A DNA stretch of 18,874 nucleotides from Rotaria magnacalcarata (Eukaryota), in the NCBI GenBank assembly GCA_965140935.1, contig CBCSLL010001102.1:25393-44266 (forward strand), given 5' to 3'. Numbering within the stretch: the stretch's first letter is position 1; every line of letters starts with the position of its first letter. A program made the position numbers and the translations under genes. Of this stretch, positions 2,394 through 18,874 are shown piece after piece. The notes under the pieces are model-generated. The model had not been told where the DNA came from and searched no databases. It worked only from the letters and a program-made list of their open reading frames with translations.

Positions 2394-3241
2394 GTAGGGT
2401 AAGTTACCCTAACAACAACACTAAAAAAATGACACGACTTGATTGATTCGGTGTACATATATTTTATATCCGACTGAAATTATTCTTACATGTGCATAAT
2501 CCTTGGAGTGTCCTCTTTCGAATGGTGAAACAACCACCCTTAACTGAGCTGTAGTGACTGAGAAAGCAGCGGTCTAAGAAAAGAACCTGTATCTGCTGTT
2601 GTTAGGATTCATTTTCCTAGTAGCAACGCTTAGCTATTTTTTGAGTATAATAACGGCGCATCATTATGAAAATAATGTCAGAGAATTTATTCATAAATAG
2701 CATATCTATTTATAATCGTTGTATAGGAACGATAACAAACTCAACTAGTTGAGTGTTGTTATTGGGGTGAAAAAATAGTTGGTTGTTGTTATTAGGGACA
2801 AAATTTCTTTTTCGATTTTAGACCTTCTTGTTTAAGAAAATTTATTTCACTCAAACTAACAACGAGTTTTCATGAATCTTTGGTCAATAAGAGAGATCGA
2901 CACGCTCTACAAAATTGCTACAGACATCTCTCGTGTATCTCTTATAAGAAATGTGAAAAAAACGTTTTTTTTTCTTGAAAAAGATAAATTTCCTTGAACT
3001 TTTTTAGTGTTGCTATTAGGGAAATGAACCATAACAACAGCAGATGCAAGTTTTTTTCGTAGACCGCTGATTTCTCAGTCACTACAGCTCAGTTAAGGAT
3101 GGTTGTTTCACCATTCGAAAGAGGACACTCCAAGGATTATGCACATGTAAGAATAATTTCAATCGGATGTAAAATAGATGTACACCGAATCAATCAAGTC
3201 GTGTCATTTTTTTAGTGTTGTTATAGGGTAACTTACTCTAC
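2394..3241. mobile_element. Foldback / MITE-like non-autonomous element: about 235-bp inverted arms (2394-2632 and 3007-3241, roughly 95% identical) around a 374-bp core carrying degenerate subrepeats of the arm-terminal motif (gttgttattaggg / ttataggg)
   Basis: The reverse complement of 3007-3241 aligns base by base with 2394-2632: gtagggtaagttaccctaacaacaacactaaaaaaatgacacgacttgattgattcggtgtacat...agcggtct...ctgctgttgttaggattcatttt. There is no ORF inside and no obvious target-site duplication. Confidence 0.6.
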
Positions 3242-3976
3242 CGGTTACTACACTGTAAAAAAAGTCATCATCCTATCGACTATACATACATGTAGCTTTC
3301 ACACATTAAACATAGCGCGTGTGCATTTCTTGAAACAAACTGAGCTATACATACGTATATCCACACTTCTAGGGTTAATTTTTTTCTAAAAAAAGTTAGT
3401 CATAATCAGTAAGCGTGAATGCGTGTTTATTCAATTAACCTCAGCTTGAAGTCTATTTTTTTTTCATCGAAGAATACAAAATATTCAAGAGTTTCTTGAT
3501 TAAAATAAGATAAGTATTAGATGATAGTCATTCGGAAATAATTGAAGCCGGTTAGAATCAGTTCTCAGAGATTAGTACGATCAATACCGACGAGTAAATG
3601 TTGAATGAACGGATGCCATGATGAATCTCTCAATTCTAATTGTCTACAATAGATACCATTACGTTGGCACGCCTGCTGATAGAATTCGATTGCCTGTTTT
3701 ATTTTTCCATTCATGTTAGCCGGTAAACAGTTGCAAAGATTGATCTTAATGATAGAAGAGAAAGTTGAATGAAGAATGAAAATACCGAAAAAAGAAATCG
3801 AATCACTTTGATTTGTTCAATACTAGTTAACATTTCAAACATATTCTGTTGTAATGATTGTGTTTTAAGAAAGAGCCACAGAAGAATGACACCAGTACCA
3901 ATCAAACGAAGAAGTTCGTTGCGCACATTCAAAGCTAATAAAATAAAATTCGTTTTTCTATACATCAATATGAAAA

Positions 3977-6926
3977 TCATCGAATATTACCGAGTGAATT
4001 AAAACCTTGTTCACGCAAATAATGTTCAAGACGATTAAAAATTTCACAATCGATATGAAGTACATCAGCTAACTGTTTATTCAATATAAATGAACCATCC
4101 TGTATTTGAATTCAATAAAAAACAAAAAATAAGTGCCGTAAATGATAATTTATACTACCTCATATTGAAGTTGCATAATCGCTTCAATCATAGTTTTTGT
4201 AGATTGAACATCTTTGAGCTTACCAAGAAGTGTATCATCGATTGTTTTACCTAAATTCATGAATTATCATAGTTTCTTTTGAGAATACTAACAAGACATC
4301 GACGAACCTAACGTAGTAGCAAGTTCACCCGAAAAATTATGTATTACAGTTTCGGTTTGGCCGTCAAGCTAACAAAATGAACAACAACAGAACAATCGAA
4401 TTACAACAAAATGATACGCTACGCACTGTGTACAATGGATCCTCAGGCTTGCGATCATAAACTGCAAAATAGAAAGAATTAAATATCATTTTTTTTTTGA
4501 AACACTGACCAGATTTAGCTTGGAAGTCTGCATCGCTTTGGACATAAGCAATATGTCGTTCAATGTCATCTACTGACGATCCTAGAAAAGTTTAAAATAT
4601 ATTTAAAGATCAAATGAAAACAAATCGAGTAATTAACGTACTTGCGACATCACCAGGGTTGATACTAATGGATGCTTTGGCACCTGAACGTGCTTCTTCG
4701 GCATCAACTCGAATTATACCATTCGCATCGATCTCCATTCTAATAGCTATTTCGAGCGTCTGAGCAGCAAAGTTACGTGTTAGGCCGCTCAGACACAGTT
4801 CTCCCAACAGTAGCTAAAATAGAAAAAAAACACTATAGAATGAAGTTTATCCATTTAGTTCACGACATACATTGTATTTTGTCAGATTATGTTCGCCTTC
4901 AAATACGCGAATAGAAGCTGTCGTTTGATAGGCATAAGCATTGGTGAATATTGAATAAAATTGAGTTCGCGTTGGAATCGTTGTATTACGACGAATAAGT
5001 ATGTGCATGCGACCGTGAGTATCTTCTACACCCAAGCCCAGTGCACAGACATCGAGGAGTAATAGGTCGTGGATGGATGCTTGTGATGTCACCTCAGCTT
5101 TGGTTGCCCTGTGAGAGATCAGCTTTTATTTTTATTATCATTTAAAATAATTTCACAAATAACGATTAACGATTAACATTTAACCGTTGCGCATATCTGT
5201 GAAATCTTACAGTACTTACGTTCTTCGTTGTTTTTTCTTTTTACGTGACATCATATGTAAGTCTGTACTTTCTGATTCGGCGTTTTGCATATCACTCTCA
5301 TCAAAGCCTCTCTAGAAGCGAGTGAAAGTTTTGCAAAAATATTGCATACTCAGTTACATACTTCAGCCACTTTGAACGCTTGCTTCATTGACGTATTCAT
5401 TCTTTTGCATGAGGTATCAGATAAGGTACTCATGGGAGCTTTCGGTTGTAGTACCTGAGCTGCCTGCATGTAGTAGCCACTACTACTACTACTATCACAA
5501 ACTGCTACAGATGCTTGCTTTGATGACGATGATGAAAATGAAGGAGAAAAAAGGTTTTTAAAATAATCTAGGCCAGATGACGATATTGGTGAGATACCTA
5601 GAATATATAAATTTATGCAACTATCAATCGATCCACAAGAATAATATGTTGAACTATGATAAATTATATTACTACCATAGATAAAGTAATGAAATATCGT
5701 GATCTTTTAGATTTGCGTTATTATATTTATCATATGTCTACTGAATGAAGATAAAGCTAAGATGATTGCATATCACTTGGAGACAGTGTTTCTTTAGAAA
5801 ATATTGTCTACCTGGCTTTGGTATGGAGCGAAGATGATTGCATAAACTACAGTCTACTATTATAAAAAATAGATTTAGAATTTTTTTAACTATAATTTTT
5901 CGTGATTATTTTTTGAATTTGTCTTAGGAAACTACATTATTTACAAAGGTATTACACATCTATTCAGAAACGACAGGTCTAATAGTAAACTACTGCAAAC
6001 TATCCACCGCATATTCATTATACATATAGCTTGCATTTATGAAATACAACATTATTTACATTTTGTATTCCGAGCTGTGCTTTGTATTTCAATAGGACAA
6101 CCAATAAGAGCAATCCTACGAAAAGCTAACTATATACTACGAAATATACCATAGACTTCTAATGGACGCAACCGATTCAAATATATTATGGCTACAATGA
6201 AACTTCAGGAGTAACATAAATCGAGGAAATGATACTGATTGCGAAAGAGAAGTAGTAGAAGTAGCGGCTTTTGCCATTTCTAGATATCGTAAGTTCATCG
6301 ATGATAGAAAATGGCAATGCCGAGTACAGAAATTAGTATTATTCTATTTGTGACTCACCAGCTGCTGATTGAGAATTCATTTGTGATGCCATATTCAGAA
6401 AAGTTGCGTTGTTATTATTGGTGTTGTTTATTATTTGATCTGCTGCATCCTTCCTTAGATTTGATGCATTAGCATTCATAAACATATTCTGAAGCTGTTC
6501 ACTAGTACCAGGGGCTGCCATATCAGAATAGGGCTTTGATGTATCCATTGAGGATGTCGGCGAAGAGAAAAGGTTTGATATTAAACCTCTATCTCTCAAT
6601 ATAGATCTCTTTTCTGCAAATTGTTGTCGGTATACCAGTAGCTGTTGCCGCTGCTGCTGCGGTGGTAGCGGTGGTGGTGACATTCTCATTGACAGTGGCA
6701 TTGGCGGTGGTGGCGGTGGTGGTAGTAGTGGTGACATTGACGTTGGCATTGGCGGTGCCGCTGATACTGACATTCTCATTGACATTGGTATTAGTGGTGC
6801 TGGCGGTGGTGATGACATTCTCATTGACAGTGCCATTGGCGGTGGTGGCGGTGGTGGTAGTAGTGGTGACATTGACAGTGCCATTGGCGGTGCCGCTGAT
6901 GATGACATTTTCATTGACATTGGCAT
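3977..6926 (-). CDS. Gene 2 (10 exons, 562 aa): N-terminal Pro/Met/Ser-rich tandem-repeat and Q/N/S-rich low-complexity region joined to an Hsp70-type substrate-binding domain (SBD-beta plus helical lid). No Hsp70 nucleotide-binding domain is present. Exons on the minus strand: 6359-6926, 5362-5597, 5220-5311, 4871-5108, 4642-4813, 4510-4581, 4427-4461, 4308-4368, 4159-4250, 3977-4099 (stop included)
   Basis: All junctions are canonical GT-AG with consistent phases, and the total of 1689 nt is 3 x 563. Translation of 4871-5108: ...TATKAEVTSQASIHDLLLLDVCALGLGVEDTHGRMHILIRRNTTIPTRTQFYSIFTNAYAYQTTASIRVFEGEHNLTKYN. Translation of 4642-4813: LLLGELCLSGLTRNFAAQTLEIAIRMEIDANGIIRVDAEEARSGAKASISINPGDVA. 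Translation of 4510-4581: RSSVDDIERHIAYVQSDADFQAKS. These align with the Hsp70 SBD (HSPA8-like DLLLLDV...KRNTTIPTK...VYEGER...LLG.FEL.GIPPAPRG.PQIEVTFDIDANGIL.V.A.DK.TG....ITI.NDKGRLSKE.IERMV). Introns are 38-63 nt, except the 761-nt first intron. The 3' lid exons are less certain. Confidence 0.7.
4642..4813 (-). CDS. Gene 2 exon 5: remainder of Hsp70 SBD-beta (LEIAIRMEIDANGIIRVDAEE...ISINPGDVA)
   Basis: ORF 4610..4807. Acceptor ttttag|CTACTG at 4813, donor GCAA|GTACGT at 4642. Confidence 0.75.
4871..5108 (-). CDS. Gene 2 exon 4: start of Hsp70 SBD-beta (DLLLLDV...RRNTTIPT...VFEGE)
   Basis: ORF 4847..5092 extended upstream to the acceptor ctctcacag|G at 5108. Donor AAT|GTATGT at 4871. Confidence 0.75.
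6359..6926 (-). CDS. Gene 2 exon 1: ATG at 6926; Pro/Met/Ser-rich repeats, then a Q-rich and N/S-rich low-complexity tail, ending at a G|GTGAGT donor
   Basis: ORF track 6339..6926 (MPMSMKMSSSAAPPMALSMSPLLPPPPPPPMALSMRMS...QQQRQQ...NNTNNNNATF...SQSAAG). The donor GTGAGT at 6358 splices in phase to 5597. No in-frame stop lies between the upstream acceptor-like ttaatag at about 6990 and the ATG. Confidence 0.6.
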
Positions 6927-6948
6927 TGGTGGTGCTGGCGGTGGTGGC
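6679..6948. repeat. Coding tandem duplication: 2 x 135 bp (each made of two ~67-bp subunits), encoding 45-aa repeats MSMRMSSPPPAPLIPMSMRMSVSAAPPMPTSMSPLLPPPPPPP on the minus strand
   Basis: gacattctcattgacagtg[g/c]cattggcggtggtggcggtggtggtagtagtggtgacattgac... recurs at 6679 and 6814. All three minus-strand frames and one plus-strand frame are open only because of the repeat (ORFs 6589..6966 and 6662..7006 are artefacts of it). Confidence 0.85.
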
Positions 6949-7080
6949 GGCTGAGATGCTTGCCAAGATTCACTTGATGATGGAAGTAGTGGAACTATTA
7001 ATATGAATCAAGGTGAATGTTTTTATATCTCGAATAGAAATAATGGGCTGTAGTAAAATCTGGGCTCGCAGCAGCCTTTC

Positions 7081-7161
7081 AAAAATATATAGGAATATAT
7101 GGGAATTGTTAGACCTCAAATATATAGGATCGTCCTCGGACATATAGGAAATATATGGGAC
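7081..7161. repeat. Cluster of three ATATAGGAA(A)TATATGGGA-type motifs in direct orientation, about 55-bp spacing
   Basis: aaaaatatataggaatatatgggaattg ... aaatatataggatcg ... catataggaaatatatgggacgc. Confidence 0.6.
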
Positions 7162-8221
7162 GCTAATATTTCGTTTAAAAATAACTAAGCATGTAAAAAT
7201 CACTACTACAGAATGGTAGGTGATGTTCTTATAACGTACCTCGACTCACCCAAATAAAAATACAGCTTTGTTATGAAAAACAGTAGTATGGCAGTATTTT
7301 ATACAAAGAAGAAATAATTTATGTTCGGTTAACCTTCGACTATTTCACAGCTACATGCAAGGAGAAAACAGGTGAAATCGGATTCTTTTTGTTGATTTTC
7401 CTTTTGATTTTTCTAATTTTAAACCAACTGATTTTAAGCGAAGAAACTCAGAAAAAATTTTTAAAATTGAAAAAATCGGAAAAATCCAAAGAAGCAAAAA
7501 GCAGCCCCATTTCAACTGTTTCACTCTCGATTAACATTTTCAAGCACAAAGATTAAAAATTTTAGCATTCTCATTGATTTGTCTGATGTTTTTCATTTTC
7601 ATTTTTGATTTAAATCAAAAAGTCAGTTTTTCCTCCCTTGCCGACATATCATAAAAATATTATAAAATTGATTGAGATAAAGATCACAAAAATACTTTCT
7701 TTTAATGTAAAGCAACAATCGATATCTTTTGTCAAGACTATTATAATTTCTAACAGTCTCAGAGCTATATAATCGAAATGGATACATATTTAAAGCACAG
7801 CAAAATAATCGGTTTAGTAAAAGATAATCGATGCATTGGTAAAAGTTTTCTTCGTTTCTGATGCTACTTGAAAATAAACATCACCGTTTCTAGTACTGTC
7901 AAACATAGTAGAATCACTTTCTAGCTGTATCTTTCTTTTGTCTTAATATCACTTTTTTTGAAACAAAATTCATCACAAATATTTAGATTAGCATGCACTC
8001 TTTCACTGTTTATTGCAATAAATACTGACGAAACACATGCAAATCTATACATTGGTGTTGAATTTTTTCTTTTTTAAGTGATATTAAGATAGAAAAATTT
8101 AAAGAAAATATTGGCCTTAGTGCTTTATATTATGATATGAACGCCGCTGATAATATTTAAACAACATGCTAGGCACTTATTTGAAGGAAATATGGTTCTT
8201 TCCACAATAATCTTTAATTTT

Positions 8222-8304
8222 TTGAAAAATATAGGAATATAGGAAAAAAGCTCAAAATATAGTCTATTATAGGACTAACTTGAAAAATATAGGAAATATA
8301 GGAG
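8222..8304. repeat. Second cluster of the same motif (TTGAAAAATATAGGAA(A)TATAGGA twice, plus a degenerate copy), same orientation, 1.14 kb from the first cluster
   Basis: ttgaaaaatataggaatataggaaaaaag ... aatatagtctattataggac ... cttgaaaaatataggaaatataggaggac. Confidence 0.6.
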
Positions 8305-8874
8305 GACTGCGATGCCAGAGTAAAATGTATTCGGATAAATTAAGAACGATTTGGTAGCGTAGCTCCTTTATGACTACCATTTGAAACTCACATATATTAT
8401 TTTGCTTCCCTAAGCGAATGCAAACTATATATAAAGTAAAAACTCTTTCGTAGTGTTTCACAAAAGATCTGCATACATCTAGAGCATCTACTTCCCGCTA
8501 GAAATGAAGACAGAATGCTATAGGCTTAACTTCAAATATCACCTGTAGTTGTTGTACTGGTATGGCTCATATGATAAAGCGGTGTTGACATAGCAGATTT
8601 TGATGAGCTTTGACATCGTTCCAATGGTTCTGAAATGCGATAAAAATTAGACATTAGCATGTCAGAAGCACCCCTACGTGGTTGTAGAGGCATCGTGGAT
8701 GGTGCAGCAAATGACTCTGTAAAGAGATTAAAGAATATAGAGAAATAAGCTGGAAGCTAAGAATAATCTCACGTAAACTTCGCCCTGTCCTCTTTTCGTT
8801 CATTTCTTTTTGAGGAATTTCCTTTAAATTTTGCTTCAATTCTGATTTCGAAAGTAAATAAAATAAAATAGATT

Positions 8875-11110
8875 TCATAAATCGTTTATCTGTACAGTAC
8901 TTTTATTGATCTTTGAATTAGGTATAGGATAACTCGTCGGAGGAGACATCCGTGTGTCCGTGAATCGAGCAGTTCCAAAATCGCCGCCGCCGCCGCCGCC
9001 GCCGCCACCGGTAGCGTCCATAGTCGACTTGCCCCTCATTGAGTCACTCTTTCTATATTTCTCTAATGGCTCTGGTTTCAAATCACTTGATTTCTTCGAT
9101 GATATTTTCATTTCAAGGTTTTTTGCTAAAAATACAATCAAACATGAACTTCATGATATTGCTACTTATCGAAATATTAAATAGTCTATTCATTACTGAT
9201 AGAAAAGTGGTAGTATTCAATGACGTAAGCTTCTTCTTTCTTTGTGAAATATAGTTGCTTTGCACTGTCAAGTAGAGATTTAGATAAATATTATAATGCT
9301 GGGTTCGATATAATAAGAATAGTCCATATATATCAATCGCCATTAAATGAATAAACTGGCATATTCTTGCAATGATCAAAAAACTTTTCTTCTCTCGAGA
9401 CATCTTGATACTAAGATGGTGATATAAAAGTATCCCGGATACTTTCTTCAATAATTGATTAGTACTTATGTATTCTTCTTGGAATCAACGCGTATCGAGA
9501 TTTTGTAATTTACTCATTCAAGGAAACTTTACTTTCAAAGGCTATCTAATAATTATCTGAATGTCTACTAATGTTCCATAGCTATCGATAGGAAAACAGG
9601 AATGCCATATATCTGTCTATTGTGATTTCCTTTTCCTTTTTGACAATCAGATAGATATATTCGCTTTTTGAATGTTTTGATGACTAATGTCTAGTTGAGG
9701 ATGCGGGTTAACTCTTCCGAACTATAATTCTTTATGGTACATGTAAAATCTGGAGTTCACTAACAATAGATAAATCAGTTTGTTTGGACGAATTTATTGA
9801 TTCCGAAAATAAGTTCTAATCGTCCCTAACATAAGAGTTACAAAAATATTAAAATAATGAGAATATCACGAAAAATTTCACTTCTCCTAGTTTGTGTTAA
9901 TTGAGCTCCTTAAAAACAATTGAAACAAACGCTATTTCGTGAGTATTATTATAGTGCCTTTTGATGATTATAAAAGTTGTATTACTTACTAAAATTGATA
10001 TAGGAAGACTCATCCATAGTGTCTAACATACTGAAATCGAATCCGGAGTAGAGATCAACGTCTGATTCTGTCGACTGTAACTGTTGCGATTCTGACGGCA
10101 CTTCAACTGAAGGAATATTCTCTAAAAACGAATGCAATACATTCAACCATGAGTACAAGCACATAATCTAAGTGCTTTTTGAAAAGCAAAACATTATTAA
10201 AAAAATGATCTTTCTCTAGTATTATATTCAAAGCTTCCTATTTTCATATTAATCATGAACAAAAACACTTAATACTGCATAGTTATATTTTTCTACAAGA
10301 AATCAGTAGTATATTTTGGTTCTTTAATCGGTATTTAAGTTGCGTAGTTAATTACACTGTAAATTGACTTGGTTTTGAACATCATTCTTATACTCAAGCA
10401 GTATTTTATTCCTTTTATTTTGTTTTTTTAAGTACTCCAGAAATGCAGCAAGGATGTAATTAATATATTATAACTTAGAGTTATTCATATACAATGTACA
10501 ATATATCTGATAAAGTTCATGGAATACAAACGTGTAAATTTCTACCCTACATATTTTAAGCCTGCCTTTAGATCATGTTTCACAGATGTTGAATAACTTA
10601 CCACATCTAGAATAGGATGCGCCGCCATCGTCGAACAAACTGAATCCCATATCCTCGCCTTCATCTTCTAACGCAATCGATTTTGACGGCAGTTCAATTG
10701 AACTCGTTAGTATAGGTATACGCATGGATTCTAAAATTAAGAAGAGAAAATTTTAACGAACAATAGAAATAAATAATATATAGCGTTTTGAAAAATTCAG
10801 CATTAAAATATTTTACTCTCTACTACGACATCCAAAGTCTCTTCTGTCTGAAGTAAATATTGGGCAATGAATTTCAATATATATCTATTGATATATTATC
10901 TGTAGTAAATCTAATAAAAGCCGTGAGTTTCACACGTGTCTCAATTTCTACCATATATACATTAACCTTCTTTGGATACCATATTTCGCAAAATTTGCAT
11001 AACTCACCAGATACAGTACAATCGATGTCGTACAACAGGCCGGAGTCCAAATCCCCCTCGTCGCCGTCCTCGAATGCAGACAATTTTGATGGTAGTACGA
11101 CAGAATTCAT
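8875..11110 (-). CDS. Gene 3 (4 exons, 204 aa): small acidic protein with three tandem paralogous exon modules, each carrying a ribosomal-P-stalk-tail-like acidic/aromatic motif, followed by a Lys-rich segment, a Gly9 tract and a C-terminal tail. Exons: 11008-11110 (ATG), 10602-10730, 9990-10121, 8875-9125 (stop included)
   Basis: Exon 1: MNSVVLPSKLSAFEDGDEGDLDSGLLYDIDCTVS, donor G|GTGAGT. Exon 2: (E)SMRIPILTSSIELPSKSIALEDEGEDMGFSLFDDGGASYSRC, acceptor ttaattttag and donor G|GTAAGT. Exon 3: (E)NIPSVEVPSESQQLQSTESDVDLYSGFDFSMLDTMDESSYINF, acceptor tcgtttttag and donor A|GTAAGT. Exon 4: (T)KNLEMKISSKKSSDLKPEPLEKYRKSDSMRGKSTMDATGGGGGGGGGDFGTARFTDTRMSPPTSYPIPNSKINKSTVQINDL*. All exon ends are in phase 1 and the total of 615 nt is 3 x 205. 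Exon 4 being terminal, and there being no extra exon inside the 864-nt intron, is less certain. Confidence 0.55.
8980..9006. repeat. (GCC)n / (CCG)n trinucleotide tract, encoding Gly9 of gene 3 on the minus strand
   Basis: cgccgccgccgccgccgccgccaccgg. GC-rich microsatellite in an AT-rich context. Confidence 0.8.
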
Positions 11111-11598
11111 TGCCAACTTATACCTCACTGCTAAAATCGAATAGAGAAAGTTTCAAACAAAACTAGATACAAATAACTGATGCAATTTAAAAAAAAGCTA
11201 AGGCTATAAAAGGAATCGATTGTCTTTATGATTGTTGAACTGTTTTTTTTCCCATAAAGCAGACATGACTAGATGGAACTGGGCGATCTGGTTTGAAATA
11301 TTAATACGGGAGCTGTTTGATGGAGGCTTCTTAGAAAAAAACAGTAGTTCCTGCTTTTTATATAAATTTGTTGAAAACTGTTTTAGCCAAGAAAAAGAAA
11401 GAAATTTTCTATGAATTTCATTTGAAAAAGCTGTTATCATACTATTGGTACGGTGAAATTGTGAAGCATGATGAAACTTCTAATATGGTAGAAGAGAAGA
11501 TCCATCATGTCTCAACTTATGAATTTTAATCTCATATTAACGTTTGACAGGATTCAAATTCATTCGCTCACGCTGCTATAGAAAATCTCTCACGAAAA

Positions 11599-11754
11599 AT
11601 GCATCACTTGCCTGATGAAGAAGCCTCGTTATCACCAAATGAGTCCCAGCACACATCATCTGCATCCGCTGATTCTTCTGATGTTGACGCAGTTGACAAT
11701 CGTTTTCTGCAAGATGTAGGCATCTCTAAAAGCAAATGCAGAATATTTCGATGA
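11599..11754 (+). CDS. Diverged, inverted (plus-strand) copy of the gene-3 module: 51-codon ORF MHHLPDEEASLSPNESQHTSSASADSSDVDAVDNRFLQD(VGISKSKCRIFR*). It may be the first exon of a paralogous plus-strand gene (possible donor CAAGAT|GTAGGC at 11716) or a decaying duplicate
   Basis: Protein and nucleotide similarity to module 3 (PSESQQLQSTESDVDLYSGFDF versus PNESQHTSSASADSSDVDAVDNRF). It lies head-to-head with gene 3 exon 1, about 490 bp away. Confidence 0.3.
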   Translation: MHHLPDEEASLSPNESQHTSSASADSSDVDAVDNRFLQDVGISKSKCRIFR

Positions 11755-12755
11755 GAAATACAATTGCTGGATAATTATAACTCAGCTTGCTGTTCGTCGA
11801 ATAATTTGTTGCTCAATCTTTCGTTTAAAAAAATCTCGTTTTACTTTGGATTTGGGTAAAAATGAGAAGGTTTATTTGTAAGTGTCCTGTTACAATTTTT
11901 AATATTTTATTATTTGAATCAATCAAAACAAGAACTGAGATGTTTCCTACCGGCATATTTATTAAATCTGCTTAAGTTTCAGCTGAAATGAATAAGGATG
12001 TAGAAAATGATTTTCATGTCACTCTCACCCTTCAACACACTGTCTTTCAACATAAAAGTCTAATATGTGTATAGTGTATTAATTACCTATATCAATACGT
12101 GACTTTTTATCCTTTTGTGATGATGAAAGTTCGATACGATCTATGCATTGGTTTTGTTCGACTATCTGAACAAGAAATATTAACTTTTGTAGGAGTCCGA
12201 AAATCAGAAATGATTTTATTAAATTACCGAATCGGACATGTTGAGTGCCAACTGTTTTAATCTAGCTATTGATTGACTACATTCCAATAGATTAAGATCT
12301 AGTAAAACAAGATAAAAAATATTACTTGGAAGAAAAAAATTGTTTTTTTTCACACTCTACAATTGCGACGTTTAACAAAATTCATATAAAATGAGTAACG
12401 ATCTTCATTACTATGAATGTTTACCTTCTCGATTTCATTTAATCTCAATTGCAAACATAAACTTTACTAATATCCATTGTTCATCTAGAGGTCATACATT
12501 CTGATTAGAGCAAAATTGAATATTAATATAGTATTGCTATCTCGCATGTTTTCCAGATTATTATACTACTCTAAACTCTTTCTATCCATTTAACAGCATT
12601 GTCAAAGAACAACCGATTGATCGAGTGAGAGAAAACTAACAACTAGGGTAATGAATTGTTTTTTAAATTATCTGTGACATTCAGAATATCTAAGCACTAT
12701 TTTATTGTCATTTTTTTCCTTCACGAATACGATCGAGTTCTTAGATTTATTGTTA

Positions 12756-15700
12756 TCACTCAGTTTTTTCAGTAATAGTTTCACAGCAGCGTTGGTACCG
12801 CAAAGAGCGTACTATATATAAAAATAGAATCACTGAGATGCTGTAACATGCTTAGACTATAAAAATCAATCTCTTCTGTCTTTTTCTCTCGATTGTAAAT
12901 TAAAAACTCTTCTTACCATCATCTTCCAGGAATTCTTTCATTCTAGAGAAATAATAACAAGTGTTGTTTTCGAATTCAATCTTTCTGCTTTGTTACATAC
13001 TCTTCGTTCGTTGTGATCCTTAAATTGTTTGCTGCACATCGTTGTTCTAATGCTTGTCGTTCTTCTGTTGTCGCGCTGAGCATCTCATTCTTTATATCTA
13101 TTTTATAATTTTTTGAAATAATAATTCTTTTAATTTTTATTCTCACTGAATCAACATACCGTTTCGCATTTTATCTTCAAGTTCATTTGCTTTATCACGT
13201 TCATTTAATGAATGACGATATGTACGTATAATAGACATCATCATGTCGAATTTAGCATCACCACCTGCTCGATAGGAGATTTTCTTACAAAGTTTTTCAA
13301 TATCAACAACCGATTCTTTTTTGCCAAGAATCGATGCACTTTCAAGTGAAACACGACCATCGATTAGTTTCTGTTTAATTAAAGCCAAATTTGATTTATC
13401 ACCATCCCATTCTATGTATGGTAATATATCGACATCTCGATCAAGCATAACATCGATGAGACGAACGCCTAACATTGAACAAAAAAATCTAGTTATCATA
13501 GAATATGAGTATTCTACCAACCTGGTTGGAGAGTCGACTGATCTGTTTTGGCATCACGTTCTTCAATGGCAACAAAACTCGTATATGGACTGACAACAGA
13601 ATAATTAATACTCAAATCTATGAGATCTTGTTTACATTGAATTTTAATCAATTCGTTTTCGCTTTCGTCTTCATGTAATATTCCGTTTTCATAATCGTCA
13701 ATTATCGCCCGTGCGGTTAGACAATGTAGAATACGTCCTCTAGTTGTTGTCATTGGACTACTGAATACAGTAGTGACAAATTCTTGCCCATCGATAGTCG
13801 CCGTTAATGTTGCTTTATGGCAATTATGAATAAATCGATAGACGCTGAGTCGCATTCCATCGAACAAAGATCGAATCATTTTTGGTGCTTGCATATTGAA
13901 TTTTTGTCCTTCGTCCAAACCACCATGCCAATCAATCGATATGCTCGTAACACATGGTTGTCGGGTATGTTCGAGAATCTCCAATACTTTTGTTTTCCAC
14001 TTCGATCGATAGTTCGAATCGAATATTGTTACTAGACCACCTCCTCGTATCCCACGAGTTAACTGTTTCAGCCCATGTTTGTTAGCAACATTTCCAATTG
14101 AACATGCAAATAAACGATCACAGCGCATAGTTGATCGATGTTCAAGTAGAGCAATAATCGAATTAACATCATGGATATGTCCATCAGATAAAAGAATAAA
14201 TTGGCGACCCGATTTCGACGACGATACAGATGGTAGCAATGAATATCGATGAAGAACTGCTAACAAATCTGTATTACCACGATGAATAAGTGAATGCTAG
14301 AATATAAGAATTTCATTACAAAACAAAACTCATCTCAAACACAAAAAATACCAACCAGAACAAAATGTTTGGCTTTATCTAGGTTCTCTTTTGTAGTTAG
14401 TGTTGAAATTGGAAAACATTCATCATTATCTAAATAGTTCAAATTTCAATAGTAGGCAAAATAATATGGTTGACTATCATCGTATTACCTGATCCAAAAG
14501 TAACTACATTGAAATATGTATTTTTATTATCAACTTTCAAATGAGTAAGAAATAAATGAGCTAACTGTTTAGCTTGTTGAACATGACTACCATCCATTGA
14601 ATTCGATACATCGACAATGAAAATAATTTCAACTGTTTCGTTCGACATCGATAATGTTTCGAATCTTGGATAAAAAGTAAGTAAACATGCTTCAGAATCG
14701 CGATTGTTCGATGTCGTTGTTCCATTGTCATCATCTAATGTCCATGTTTCATTTGATATTCGAGGTAAATTAGCACTTTTAAGTGTTACCGAAAGAACAA
14801 AATCTCGATCGAGTAAAACATTATCGACAAGTTCGACCATGGCCATACAATCGGTCAGTTTTCGACGAAGACGATGTGTCGGCGAAAACAATTTGATTAT
14901 TTCATAGGGCATTCGAATAGATGTTTTAAAACTGAATTCGACTTTTTCATCAACAATATCAATAGATCGTACAGTCGATTGATCTTTTGTTTCAATGGCT
15001 TGTTTCGATTGCCATGAAGCCATTTTTGCTGGAAGTCGAAAGATAATATCACCATTCTCGATTTCTAATTCGGCAACATAGGTTATTTTGATAATGACTT
15101 CATTGTTGGCTGGTAAGTTACCAACAGCTACGCTGAATACTTGAGCCTGCTCCTGATGCATCAAATAGGCACCGTGACCTTTTTCGATTGCTTCTCGATA
15201 TTCTTGTTTGGCTTGTTCTTTCTCTTTGACTACACCTTTAATAATTTTATTATTGATATGTGCTTCAAAACCACATACAGTTGAATTTTCATCAAGTGGA
15301 AACACATATTTAGCTTCAATAGGTATTGAACTCGTATTATGATAGACTTGATAGAGAACAACCTTATCGATGAAAACAAAACAGGATGTGTTAGTTGATC
15401 AAAGTAATAGCTATAATTACTTCAACTGTAGCATCGACGATTTGAGCTCGAATATGAAATGATTTCAGTGGTACAAGTTTGCCCGATGATGGGCATACTA
15501 AGCCATAGTCTTGTTCGGCTACTTCAATAATTTCATCGTCAATTGTCAAAGGAACTTCGACTAGAATTTCGTAGATAACCTAGCTGAATTTTATTAGAAG
15601 ATAAAGAATCATTATTACCATGTTCACTGAGTTTCAATGCATGTTGCTCATGATGAACAACGGGTAAACGTTCCAGTGCAATATTGATATTATCATTTGG

Positions 15701-18197
15701 TATCCATGAAACTTCCACAATGTAGAGTAAACGTTGTTGATCGAGTTGATAAATTGCATATTCATTATCCTATTTCAATAGAAATCAGATTTTTTATTCC
15801 AACATTTAGCATGTTGGTATAAGTGACACTGATCCGACAATTTCGTATCTAGTTTTATTGAAAATAATGAATACAAAGATATAGGACACAATGTCAAATA
15901 TTGATCTCTCTCTTTTTTCTATTGTATTGCCACGACATTCATGGCTACTTGTTCACAACTATTTTTCTTCATATTTTTATCAAATATTTGTTGAAACTCT
16001 GGCAGTGATACACGATAAAAGTGCTTTCCACAAGCATTCGCGAATGTAATATTATCAGACATAATACAAGCAAACTACTTACGCTAAACATGGAACGATT
16101 TTCTTCCGTTCGTTTGACACCATGCGTACTATGAAAACCATCAGGAGGTTTGGTGATTGTCGGTGAAAATGAATAATAATTAGCTGATTCACCGAGGGCG
16201 ACTTGACAAACACATAGTAGTCGGCGACCTGGTCGCGTTGTGCTAGCTGTCGTATATTTTAGCGACGTAGAAACAGAATCAGAAAAGTAAATTCCGTAGC
16301 CAAGACAACCAATATCAGTACGCACCACACCTAATTCTTCAACTACCATTTTTGGCATGGCCAAACCACTGAATGCATACATTCACACAATAGATATTGT
16401 CTCGAGAGAAAGATGAATAGTTTACCGTGAAAGAATTCCAAGAAAATTGGCATATTTTGATCCGTGAAATAGTTGCTGTTGATTTGATAGTGATGTTCGA
16501 AAGTTGAGTGCATCTGTTTGTTTGGCTACGCTGAATATTTGATGAATAACGATTTTTTCACCACTAACGAACAGAGAGAAACCGATAATTGTGAAATCAA
16601 AATTCAATTCAACTCACTTATCTGTTGACGATTGAATATGTTCAGCAACATTCATAAATTCAGGTGTTGAACTATCGACTATTTCAATATGACAGTTCAA
16701 TGCTCGATATTTTGCTTCAATTGGAGCTTTAGTATTCCAATTGGTTAGTTCATTGACTGTGAGCATATCTCGAAGTAACTAAAAGAGCAAAGTGTTCAAT
16801 GAAATTATTAAAATAAATCGACATACCTGACATAAGTCAATTTTTTCAGTTAGTGCTCGACGATTTTTTACGAGGTCAACCTTATACTCCGCACGATGAG
16901 GAATAAGTGAATAGAAACGAAGTGCAGCAGCAGGATCATTAGTTGACTTGAGTTCAAGTAGTGCAGCCTCAGCTTCAATGATCTGTTCAGTAGTTTGAAA
17001 TAAAACTTAATTGGAATACATAAAAGAAAATGAATATATGCGTACAGTTTTGAGAGTAATCGATTCAGGTAATACGCTCAATATTTTATTCAAATCACCA
17101 ATCGATTCTAACCAAATCGATTCAATTAATTGGCATACGTTATCGTCGAGTATTTGTGTATCAATACGATTAGCAAATAAAGACTAAAAATATTTTATTT
17201 AGTATTGAAAATAAAACTTCCTAATTAATATCATTGGCTTACACGTAGTAATAGTTTTGATCCCAATTTATCTGGTAACATTTCACGAATTCGTGTTACA
17301 CGTGGCATTTTAGCTATTCGATAATAGTATGATGCAAACAGTTGTTGTTGTTCGTTGGGTTCATCACCGAATGCATATTGTATCAATACTCTATTATCTT
17401 GCTTTTGTCCTTGTCTTACAATAGTCTGCTTTTCGTATCGAAACCGTAATCGATAATCAGTCATTGTTCGATCAAAGTATTGTTCCGGAATAACTTGAAG
17501 TTCAAGTACGAAAAATACCTCTGAATTGTCATTAGTTTCCTATGAAAAATAAATACAATAGAAGCACATTAAAGCGATAAAAGAATAGAATTTTACTTTG
17601 AAAATGGCCCACTTCGCTATTTCACAATGTGTCAATTCATCAAAACGAGGTAAATCAACATCGTCTGCATTCCATAGTTTGATTTTATTCAAATCAAATC
17701 GATTAGCTTTAATGCTAGTTGCTTGAGATCCTAACAAGGAACGATGTACGACATCAATCAAAACACAAGAGCAAATATATGATACCTGCAACGGAAATAG
17801 TGCCTGTTTTTGTAAAATTCTCCTGATCTTCAACTGATTTGACAATAAATTTGCTAATGTCAATTGGTGTTTGACCCGCCTGTAAACGCCGACATTCATA
17901 TACATATTCAACATTGACCAATGGCAAGCCAAGTTGCTTTGCACGACGGACTTTGTAGCTATCGAAATTATTCGTAACCAATATGTAGTCAGTCTAGAAC
18001 AAATTCTATTAAGACAGCATTTTATGTAGAATAGAAGAACAACGTACACTAGCAGTAAGTATATATGAAATATGTGCTTGCTGTTCTCGTAAATAGTTGA
18101 TCAAGTCTTGTTTAGCCTTGAATCCTATTTCACGACCGAGCTCGAGTACAATTGTTTTACCATTGAATGGCGATAAAAGTGTGGCAGATACACTCAT
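12756..18197 (-). CDS. PARP4: Gene 1 (18 exons, 4170 nt, about 1389 aa): PARP4 / vault poly(ADP-ribose) polymerase-like protein with BRCT - PARP helical plus catalytic domain (H-G-S, Y and NEY catalytic residues) - VIT - vWA - C-terminal tail. Exons: 18048-18197, 17786-17993, 17597-17730, 17243-17539, 17046-17183, 16827-16982, 16618-16778, 16426-16563, 16083-16368, 15619-15769, 15421-15560, 14489-15362, 14356-14429, 13522-14296, 13160-13468, 13001-13097, 12917-12942, 12756-12811
   Basis: Every junction was read as GT-AG with consistent phase, and the exon sum is divisible by 3. BRCT: NGKTIVLELGREIGFKAKQDLINYLREQQA... and TDYILVTNNFDSYKVRRAKQLGLPLVNVEYVYECRRLQ. PARP signature: QQQLFHGSKYANFLGILS|RGLAMPKMVVEELGVVRTDIGCLGYGIYFSDSVSTSLKY...RRLLCVCQVALGE...KPPDGFHSTHGVK...|DNEYAIYQL. 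VIT: VEVPLTIDDEIIEVAEQDYGLVCPSSGKLVPLKSFHIRAQIVDATVE|VVLYQVYHNTSSIPIEAKYVFPLDENSTVCGFEAHINNKIIKGVVKEKEQAKQEYREAIEKG. vWA: EIIFIVDVSNSMDGSHVQQAKQLAHLFLTHL...NVVTFGS...DLLAVLHRYSLLPSVS...ILLSDGHIHD...YSVVSPYTSFVAIEER. The last three small exons (12756-13097) are the least certain. The gene symbol reflects domain architecture, not a database hit. Confidence 0.8.
13522..15362 (-). CDS. PARP4: PARP4-like exons 12-14: VIT domain and von Willebrand factor A domain (14489-15362, 14356-14429, 13522-14296)
   Basis: ORFs 14439..15305 and 13514..14266 extended to acceptors cgataag|GTTGTTC (15362) and tattctag|CATTCAC (14296). A 74-nt micro-exon at 14356-14429 keeps the frame (...NVVTFGS|DNDECFPISTLTTKENLDKAKHFVL|HSLIHRGNTDLLAVLH...). 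Confidence 0.7.
15619..16563 (-). CDS. PARP4: PARP4-like exons 8-10: PARP catalytic core (H-G-S motif, donor-loop Tyr, catalytic Glu in NEYAIY), exons 16426-16563, 16083-16368 and 15619-15769
   Basis: ORFs 16422..16607 and 15969..16382 are joined by the CG|GTAAAC donor and cattcag|T acceptor to give ...GILSRGLAMPK.... Donor AGC|GTAAGT at 16083 and acceptor gaaatag|GATAATGAATATG at 15769. Confidence 0.8.
17786..18197 (-). CDS. PARP4: PARP4-like exons 1-2: N-terminal BRCT domain (spans one 54-nt intron at 17994-18047)
   Basis: ORFs 18009..18197 and 17754..17981. Donor AGT|GTACGT at 18048 and acceptor ttgttctag|ACTGAC at 17993. Confidence 0.75.
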
Positions 18198-18700: not shown

Positions 18701-18874
18701 TGGCTATGTACACTCAGGTGCACATAGCCATGTGGCTATATGCACTTGAGTACACATAGCCAGTTGGCTATATACACTTAGGTGTACATAGTCGCATGAC
18801 TATGTGCACTCAAGTACATATAGCCGACTGACTATGTACACCTAAGTGTGTATAGCCAACTGGCTATGTGCACT
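18701..18874. repeat. Tandem array of alternating inverted 13-mers (TGGCTATGTGCAC / GTGCACATAGCCA) with 2-4-nt spacers. It consists of about 5.5 hairpin units of ~31 bp, each internally palindromic, and runs off the window edge
   Basis: tggctatgtacac tcag gtgcacatagcca tg tggctatatgcac ttga gtacacatagcca gt tggctatatacac ttag gtgtacatagtcg catg actatgtgcac tcaa gtacatatagccg ac tgactatgtacac ctaa gtgtgtatagcca ac tggctatgtgcact. Confidence 0.85.

Follow-up and report, generated by a model that had tools for sequence, protein, structure and literature searches.

An 18,874-nt stretch of DNA from the bdelloid rotifer Rotaria magnacalcarata (hereafter the window) was analysed for the gene at positions 3977-6926, which an initial annotation had described as a stand-alone gene joining a Pro/Met-rich N-terminus to an Hsp70 substrate-binding domain (SBD). 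The locus is most probably that of PARP4, the vault PARP, in which the Hsp70 SBD stands just before the domain that interacts with the major vault protein (MVP), known as MVP-ID or MINT. The 3977-6926 region would then be the 3' third of one PARP4 gene and not a separate Hsp70-like gene. We put the probability of this gene structure and identity at about 0.85.

The gene model was built by hand from blocks conserved with the loci of Rotaria sp. Silwood1 and Silwood2, together with a splice-site search between the blocks; the weakly conserved middle was assembled by eye. All introns separating the resulting 36 exons are GT-AG, the phases are consistent throughout and there are zero internal stops. 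The start codon is the ATG at 18197. In the list of open reading frames (ORFs) of the whole window, the segments that code for BRCT-like, PARP catalytic, VIT and vWA sequence share their strand with the SBD, and Pfam recognized BRCT, PARP, VIT, VWA and HSP70 in the 2,365-aa translation. The domains follow one another in the order BRCT, (WGR/HD), ADP-ribosyltransferase (ART), VIT, vWA, a disordered linker of ~640 aa, the Hsp70 SBD and MVP-ID. The coordinates are collected in Table 1.

The identity of the gene is indicated by the alignment of model residues 219-1256 with residues 202-1218 of human PARP4 at E=7.6e-191, the corresponding value for PARP1/2 being ~1e-20. This alignment is unbroken through the VIT/vWA region to residue 1218. 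The PARP4 catalytic fragments 8sx1 and 8swy matched the model at E=6e-61 and 8e-46, respectively, and the H-Y-E triad of the catalytic domain is conserved when aligned to human PARP4 (LFHGS/LLHGS, GIYFSDS/GIYFSDS and DNEYAIY/DDEFVVY). The VIT/vWA region is 79-93% identical to the Rotaria sp. Silwood1 and Silwood2 loci, and a further R. magnacalcarata locus (L009) is 99.6-99.9% identical to the window.

In human PARP4, BRCT-WGR-HD-ART is followed by an ITIH-like region with VIT and vWA, then by a long disordered stretch and finally by a helical MVP-ID at residues 1570-1724, and no Hsp70-like domain has been reported in it (PMC10450202). The bdelloid protein shares with human and vertebrate PARP4 the BRCT domain, a PARP1-like catalytic region with the H-Y-E residues, VIT, vWA, a disordered Pro/Ser-rich linker and the C-terminal helical MVP-interaction domain. 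It is longer, 2,365 aa as against 1,724 aa, and it adds an Hsp70 SBD of ~150-185 residues between the linker and MVP-ID. A fish PARP4 in the database has PARP, VIT, VWA and PF26156, the Pfam family named 'PARP4 MVP-ID C-terminal domain', and lacks the Hsp70 family PF00012.

The ten minus-strand exons originally proposed (6926-6359 through 4099-3977) could be rebuilt exactly: all are bounded by AG/GT, and they total 1,689 nt encoding 562 aa. The oddity that had been noticed is genuine, but the gene was drawn too small at both ends, hence its misreading as a stand-alone gene. The ATG at 6926, taken as the start codon, lies within an exon whose frame stays open as far upstream as an AG acceptor at 6994. 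This acceptor is joined in phase 1 to the exon 8716-8543, and a phase-consistent chain leads from there to the BRCT, PARP, VIT and vWA exons upstream of the supposed 562-aa protein. From the vWA region to the Pro/Met exon there are ten junctions, all of them in phase and seven in phase 1. At the other end, the stop at 3977 results from intron read-through past the donor at 3991/3990, because the C-termini of the orthologues require this donor; all of them splice on (...EQGFNSL|ALNVRNE...). Two additional 3' exons complete MVP-ID, and the coding sequence ends at 3565.

A profile of nine rotifer C-termini was searched against the PDB. The sole significant match was human PARP4 1575-1706 (E=6.3e-9), the MINT/MVP-ID segment that is seen on the vault shell in 9bw6 and 9bw7. 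The nearest database proteins are bdelloid (Rotaria, Adineta and Didymodactylos), and several of them carry both PF00012 and PF26156, the latter being precomputed on P0002, P0004, P0009, P0241, P0242 and P0392. A local Pfam scan of the window C-terminus gave no PF26156 match. Bdelloid C-termini continue as ...EQGFNSL|ALN(I/V)RNELLRLIGTG...IEQIK|..LC...NGIYC.QLEL..SW..., and the C-terminus of P0242 (CAF1250372.1), an R. magnacalcarata protein of 609 aa that is 99% identical to the window, is exactly of this form. The AlphaFold2 (AF2) model of P0242 was examined, and its C-terminal MVP-ID is all-helical with a predicted local distance difference test score (pLDDT) of 87-96. What had been taken for the helical lid of an Hsp70 is mostly this MVP-interaction domain, which makes up the last ~165 residues. 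Human MINT docks at MVP repeats 3-5 inside the cage via S1614, K1618, Q1682 and R1689 (PMC12280208). Vault docking of rotifer PARP4 is plausible by analogy and is assumed in what follows.

The Hsp70 module consists of the DLLLLDV inter-domain linker, SBD-beta, helix A and a rotifer-specific VYDRKPEDPLY segment. Several features first seen by the initial annotation were borne out: DLLLLDV directly precedes an intact SBD, the nucleotide-binding domain (NBD) is absent and so is the EEVD, the C-terminus reading ...GIDRTNL. When the 562-aa model was compared with the PF00012 profile, only positions 369-557 of 599 were covered, that is the linker and SBD (E=2.3e-25). Two full-length Hsp70s, the database protein P0249 and an HSPA8 sequence, served as tblastn queries. 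Matches were confined to 5077-4619 of the window, corresponding to Hsp70 residues ~387-543, and residues 1-386 were unmatched on either strand of the 18.9-kb window. The C-terminal ~300 aa had been assigned to Hsp70. The SBD in this part is genuine, but it accounts for about 135-185 residues only, which comprise SBD-beta, helix A and the first part of helix B.

The top relatives of the SBD among solved structures were the isolated SBDs of rat Hsc70 (1ckr, E=2.9e-22), BiP and Hsp70-1A, and this search gave no PARP4 match for the SBD. In the AF2 model the SBD-beta sandwich has a pLDDT of ~90 and is followed by one 12-residue helix, the lid helix A, and then by a low-confidence segment of 25 residues. 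Foldseek placed the sandwich on the SBDs of BiP, Hsp70 and DnaK with a root-mean-square deviation of 2.0-2.8 A across ~140 residues and a sequence identity of 34-40%; the PDB listing was filled with Hsp70 SBDs and the MINT domain was not among the matches listed. In the alignment, similarity to Hsc70 and DnaK stops soon after helix A. The lid is nearly gone, being reduced to helix A plus a few turns with no helical bundle.

The substrate pocket was evaluated in an alignment of five bdelloid sequences with Hsc70 and DnaK, the Hsc70 row agreeing with the PDB alignment. In DnaK numbering, the pocket residues F426, I438 and I472 are unchanged, I401 is V or I and V436 is A; at the arch, A429 is likewise kept and M404 is T (I in most rotifers). 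The FTNAYAYQTTATIRIFEGEH block is almost invariant among the five bdelloid sequences. The pocket is mostly conservative, and the SBD may bind peptides. The module has in common with canonical Hsp70s (HSPA8/Hsc70, BiP and DnaK) the DLLLLDV linker, an eight-stranded SBD-beta and helix A, and its identity to Hsc70/BiP is 35-40%. It differs from them in having no NBD, helical bundle or EEVD, in being set within an unrelated enzyme, and in a 2-residue insertion in L3,4 with a bdelloid-specific NAYAYQ motif.

Table 1. Features of the PARP4 locus in the R. magnacalcarata window.
Feature	Positions	Strand	Remarks
Whole PARP4 orthologue	3565..18197	(-)	36 exons, coding sequence 7,098 nt, 2,365 aa
BRCT domain, aa 9-84	17892..18173	(-)	Pfam E=1.1e-4, 22.8 bits, cutoff 21.3: marginal, above threshold
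PARP catalytic domain, aa 401-559	15761..16661	(-)	Pfam PARP E=1.3e-25
VIT (aa 626-748) and vWA (aa 898-1054), ITIH-like region	14042..15504	(-)	Pfam VIT E=1.1e-36, VWA_3 E=2.6e-12
Post-vWA part of ITIH-like region, aa 1055-1363	12942..14041	(-)	tblastn conservation with L001, L005, L012
Linker exons, aa 1364-2004, ~640 aa	5220..12941	(-)	long introns; includes exons 1-3 of the initial annotation
Three acidic linker exons, consecutive, phase-1/phase-1	11130-11008, 10730-10602, 10121-9990	(-)	related motifs ...LPSK..A.ED.GE.D...
Exon 25	6359..6994	(-)	exon 1 of the initial annotation plus 68 nt upstream; AG acceptor 6994; Pro/Met 45-aa repeat
KKKKQRR basic patch, aa 1997-2003	5222..5242	(-)	read from sequence, just ahead of SBD
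Hsp70 module, aa 2005-2188	4333..5107	(-)	Pfam HSP70 E=2.9e-24, profile positions 369-552 (full-length model)
SBD-beta	5071-4658	(-)	part of Hsp70 module
Helix A	4645-4538	(-)	part of Hsp70 module
MVP-ID/MINT, aa 2203-2365	3568..4233	(-)	includes exons 3934-3807 and 3744-3565

The claim of a single gene rests on comparative evidence, from which we infer the 8543|6994 junction across the 1,548-nt intron 24. A partial R. magnacalcarata model of 1,294 aa (P0387) runs from vWA through the SBD to MVP-ID by way of this same junction, TTTT|VPLLPSS, and leaves out only exons 20 and 23 (11130-11008 and 9125-8901), both of which are phase 1-1. The architecture recurs in other bdelloids. PARP, VIT, vWA and HSP70 were found together in one model in Adineta ricciae (P0392, 2,063 aa), which carries the UniProt name 'Poly [ADP-ribose] polymerase', and in Didymodactylos carnosus (P0396, 2,098 aa). 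The A. ricciae gene is compact, occupying 7.75 kb for a coding sequence of 6.2 kb with opposite-strand genes on both flanks, and in L012 it is collinear with the window model from aa 2 to 2364. In the A. ricciae allele L008, the distance from the post-vWA exon to the SBD is ~1.4 kb, filled by ORFs with introns of 50-70 nt. The post-vWA sequence also opens the A. ricciae model P0243, which continues into the SBD. Furthermore, the Silwood1 and Silwood2 loci have the same order on the same strand, and the arrangement occurs in independent assemblies of six species. The Hsp70 piece has been fixed in bdelloid PARP4 since before Rotaria, Adineta and Didymodactylos split.

Several observations weigh against a single PARP4 gene with an SBD beside its vault-docking domain. 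The join across intron 24 is itself inferred, and public annotations of the species split at this intron, giving P0242 and an upstream model of 1,688 aa in L009. Other public models call genes of 600-800 aa that consist of low-complexity sequence, SBD and MVP-ID. In R. sordida L010 and in copy 1 of Silwood2 L004, the 5-12.8 kb that precede the SBD contained no PARP, VIT or vWA coding sequence. Stand-alone SBD-MVP-ID paralogues or isoforms may exist, or else copies with much longer introns. Of three human MVP-contact residues checked, S1614 is kept, K1618 is replaced by N and R1689 by Q. A human MVP query matched only vertebrates among the 120 matches listed, with no Rotaria MVP. The loops of the SBD differ at M404, at V436 and in the L3,4 insertion described above, some D. 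carnosus paralogues (P0248, P0016 and P0399) have a degenerate or truncated SBD, and the SBD might serve a structural purpose or mediate protein interactions with a novel specificity.

The possibility was considered that the low-complexity sequence, SBD and MVP-ID belong to a stand-alone gene, with its own promoter in the gap 8542-6995, beside a PARP4 gene that ends at 8532. The split annotation of the same species corresponds to such an arrangement, since P0242 has its start at ~6773 and the model upstream of it terminates at the read-through stop 8532; the 600-800-aa models of comparable kind, in R. sordida and Silwood1, and the two loci with no upstream domains point the same way. However, the split would deprive the PARP4 gene of its defining vault-docking domain, which lies on the same strand 5 kb further downstream. 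Whichever candidate ATG is chosen, the frame continues open upstream of it to a good AG acceptor, whose phase agrees with that of the upstream donor, and P0387 uses the 8543|6994 junction in the same species. Moreover, the models of A. ricciae and D. carnosus run without a break, and in A. ricciae the locus has no room for a promoter. The split models are automated predictions, which break at long introns or also cut inside conserved domains, as in L001 within the post-vWA region. A separate gene is therefore unlikely. A short isoform transcribed from an internal promoter in intron 24 is possible.

It was also considered that the Hsp70 piece might be a decaying fragment, a processed pseudogene or a relic of exon shuffling. 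The missing NBD and EEVD, the almost missing lid and the truncated or degenerate SBDs of the three D. carnosus paralogues would be expected of decay. Against this, the frame is intact and is spliced from several exons, the AF2 fold is confident, and long invariant blocks are found across Rotaria, Adineta and Didymodactylos. The nonsynonymous and synonymous substitution rates (dN and dS) were calculated by the Nei-Gojobori method (NG86) on clean tblastn blocks, leaving out blocks that run into intron stops. Compared with Rotaria sp. Silwood1, the SBD exons gave dN=0.13, dS=1.08 and dN/dS=0.12, while the PARP catalytic exon gave 0.10. The SBD is under purifying selection. The SBD is also conserved in three bdelloid families. 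The earlier view that this is not a pseudogene is upheld, and decay is very improbable.

The SBD scored 80-83 bits against cytosolic Hsc70/BiP and 61-66 bits against E. coli DnaK and mitochondrial Hsp70. The D. carnosus SBD copy reads ITDDKGRLT, near the canonical ITNDKGRLS, and because of this motif, the DLLLLDV linker and the overall similarity, the sequence points to derivation from a eukaryotic Hsp70 of the cytosolic/ER type. A bacterial origin of the SBD was rejected on the bit scores, the motifs and the spliceosomal introns that interrupt the SBD. Bdelloids are known for foreign genes and many matches are labelled 'DnaK' by JGI, but the probability that the arrangement is an assembly chimera, or the Hsp70 piece a bacterial DnaK fragment gained by horizontal transfer, is close to nil in view of these features and of the recurrence of the arrangement in the six species.

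Additional copies of the gene were observed. In Rotaria sp. Silwood1, a second PARP4-like gene lies at L001 14497-21144 on the same strand, ~3 kb downstream of the MVP-ID of the first copy. Identity to the window is 93% in the PARP/VIT exons of this second gene and 62-80% in the first copy, and PARP4 has therefore been tandemly duplicated in Rotaria. Possible stand-alone vault-targeted SBD copies lie at L010/L011 1-12800 in R. sordida and at L004 1-5100 in Silwood2.

The linker is rich in S (17%), P (10%) and M (7%) and shows almost no conservation across species by tblastn. The Pro-rich stretch, which had been proposed to act as a docking tail for SH3/WW-type partners, is part of this long disordered linker, as in human PARP4 (PMC10450202), and the data contain no dedicated tail. 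The 45-aa tandem repeat reported by the initial annotation is real, Tandem Repeats Finder returning a 135-nt period, 2.1 copies and 92% matches at 6661-6946. Its copy number varies between R. magnacalcarata assemblies, P0387 having one unit fewer, and the alignment of the window with L009 breaks and then re-matches across the repeat. The KKKKQRR patch may be a nuclear localisation signal.

The middle one of the three acidic linker exons reads EDEGEDMGFSLFDD, a near match to DDMGFGLFD, the C-terminal tail of the ribosomal P-stalk. The P-stalk-like motif (EDMGFSLFDD) was weighed as a possible conserved functional short linear motif and was dropped, the pattern used finding R. magnacalcarata only. 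Some bdelloid PARP4 paralogues carry extra linker modules. The D. carnosus protein P0399 (1,849 aa) has a 14-3-3 fragment together with its degenerate SBD, and pairs of EF-hands occur in the linker of other PARP4 paralogues (P0124, L005 and L006; Rotaria sp. Silwood1/2). Domain capture seems to be concentrated in the linker.

Full-text literature searches returned no description of an Hsp70 domain in either PARP4 or the PARPs of rotifers, and those aimed at NBD-less Hsp70 fusions gave no account of this architecture. The SBD-bearing protein is a bdelloid-specific PARP4 variant, visible only in automated database entries. HSPA13/STCH is a stand-alone half-Hsp70 retained in evolution that keeps the ATPase domain and has no SBD. 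The truncation in bdelloid PARP4 is the opposite one, and the module resides within another enzyme. Few natural cases are known to us of an Hsp70 SBD kept without its ATPase, and the bdelloid PARP4 SBD can show what the clamp does alone. In engineered MINT fusions, a module placed directly N-terminal to MINT is packaged into the vault lumen (PMC12280208). Those fusions are artificial constructs. The bdelloid arrangement is natural, and its module is a putative chaperone clamp that may be packaged likewise.

By analogy with human PARP4, MVP-ID would anchor the bdelloid protein on the inside of the vault shell. The SBD would then lie inside the vault lumen, because the MVP-ID alongside it docks to the inner wall in the human case, and it could act there as a clamp that grips short, extended hydrophobic stretches of peptide independently of nucleotide. 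An SBD that lacks the NBD cannot be opened by ATP, and one that lacks the lid has no latch. Binding and release by the bdelloid clamp would be passive, the absence of the NBD precluding ATP-driven opening and the near absence of the lid leaving no latch. One possible role of the clamp is to keep unfolded or exposed parts of vault cargo, or of proteins targeted for ADP-ribosylation, close to the catalytic domain. Another is to bind in cis to hydrophobic motifs in the ~640-residue linker of PARP4 itself and thereby modulate its reach. Each particular role is doubtful.

A more specific proposal is that the bdelloid vault is a chaperone-bearing compartment. PARP4-docked, ATP-independent clamps would catch hydrophobic segments that are exposed on damaged or unfolded proteins or on specific clients and present them to the ADP-ribosyltransferase in the response to desiccation and radiation. 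Each vault would bear multiple clamps if several PARP4 molecules dock, and the possible stand-alone SBD-MVP-ID paralogues of R. sordida and Silwood2 might deliver the clamp without the enzyme. This proposal is speculative and rather unlikely as it stands.

PARP4 is the only vault enzyme, and the function of vaults and the selection of their cargo are open questions (PMC12280208). The presence of an SBD beside the vault-docking domain across a whole animal class suggests a type of cargo or substrate, namely extended hydrophobic peptide segments. The bdelloid A. vaga has several MVP genes that are induced by radiation and rehydration, and many of its PARP genes are induced after irradiation or rehydration (PMC10809525). 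Since desiccation and irradiation induce MVP and many PARP genes in bdelloids (PMC10809525), the SBD-bearing PARP4 is a candidate link between vaults, ADP-ribosylation and protection of the proteome. On the practical side, public annotations are fragmented at the PARP4 locus in most Rotaria assemblies, and merging them is warranted.

Repeats were observed around and within the gene. About 350 nt downstream of the stop codon there is a 217-nt inverted repeat whose arms, 2414-2630 and 3006-3222, are 94% complementary and have 375 nt between them; it looks like a foldback or terminal-inverted-repeat type mobile element. Intron 24 (6995-8542) contains a palindrome at 7933-8097 and 33-nt direct repeats at 7123-7155 and 8268-8300, and it may have been lengthened by a transposon insertion. 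Approximately 500 nt upstream of the PARP4 start codon, an array of mutually palindromic 32-nt units (arms of 61-76 nt, 74-85% complementary) occupies 18701-18874 and extends to the window edge.

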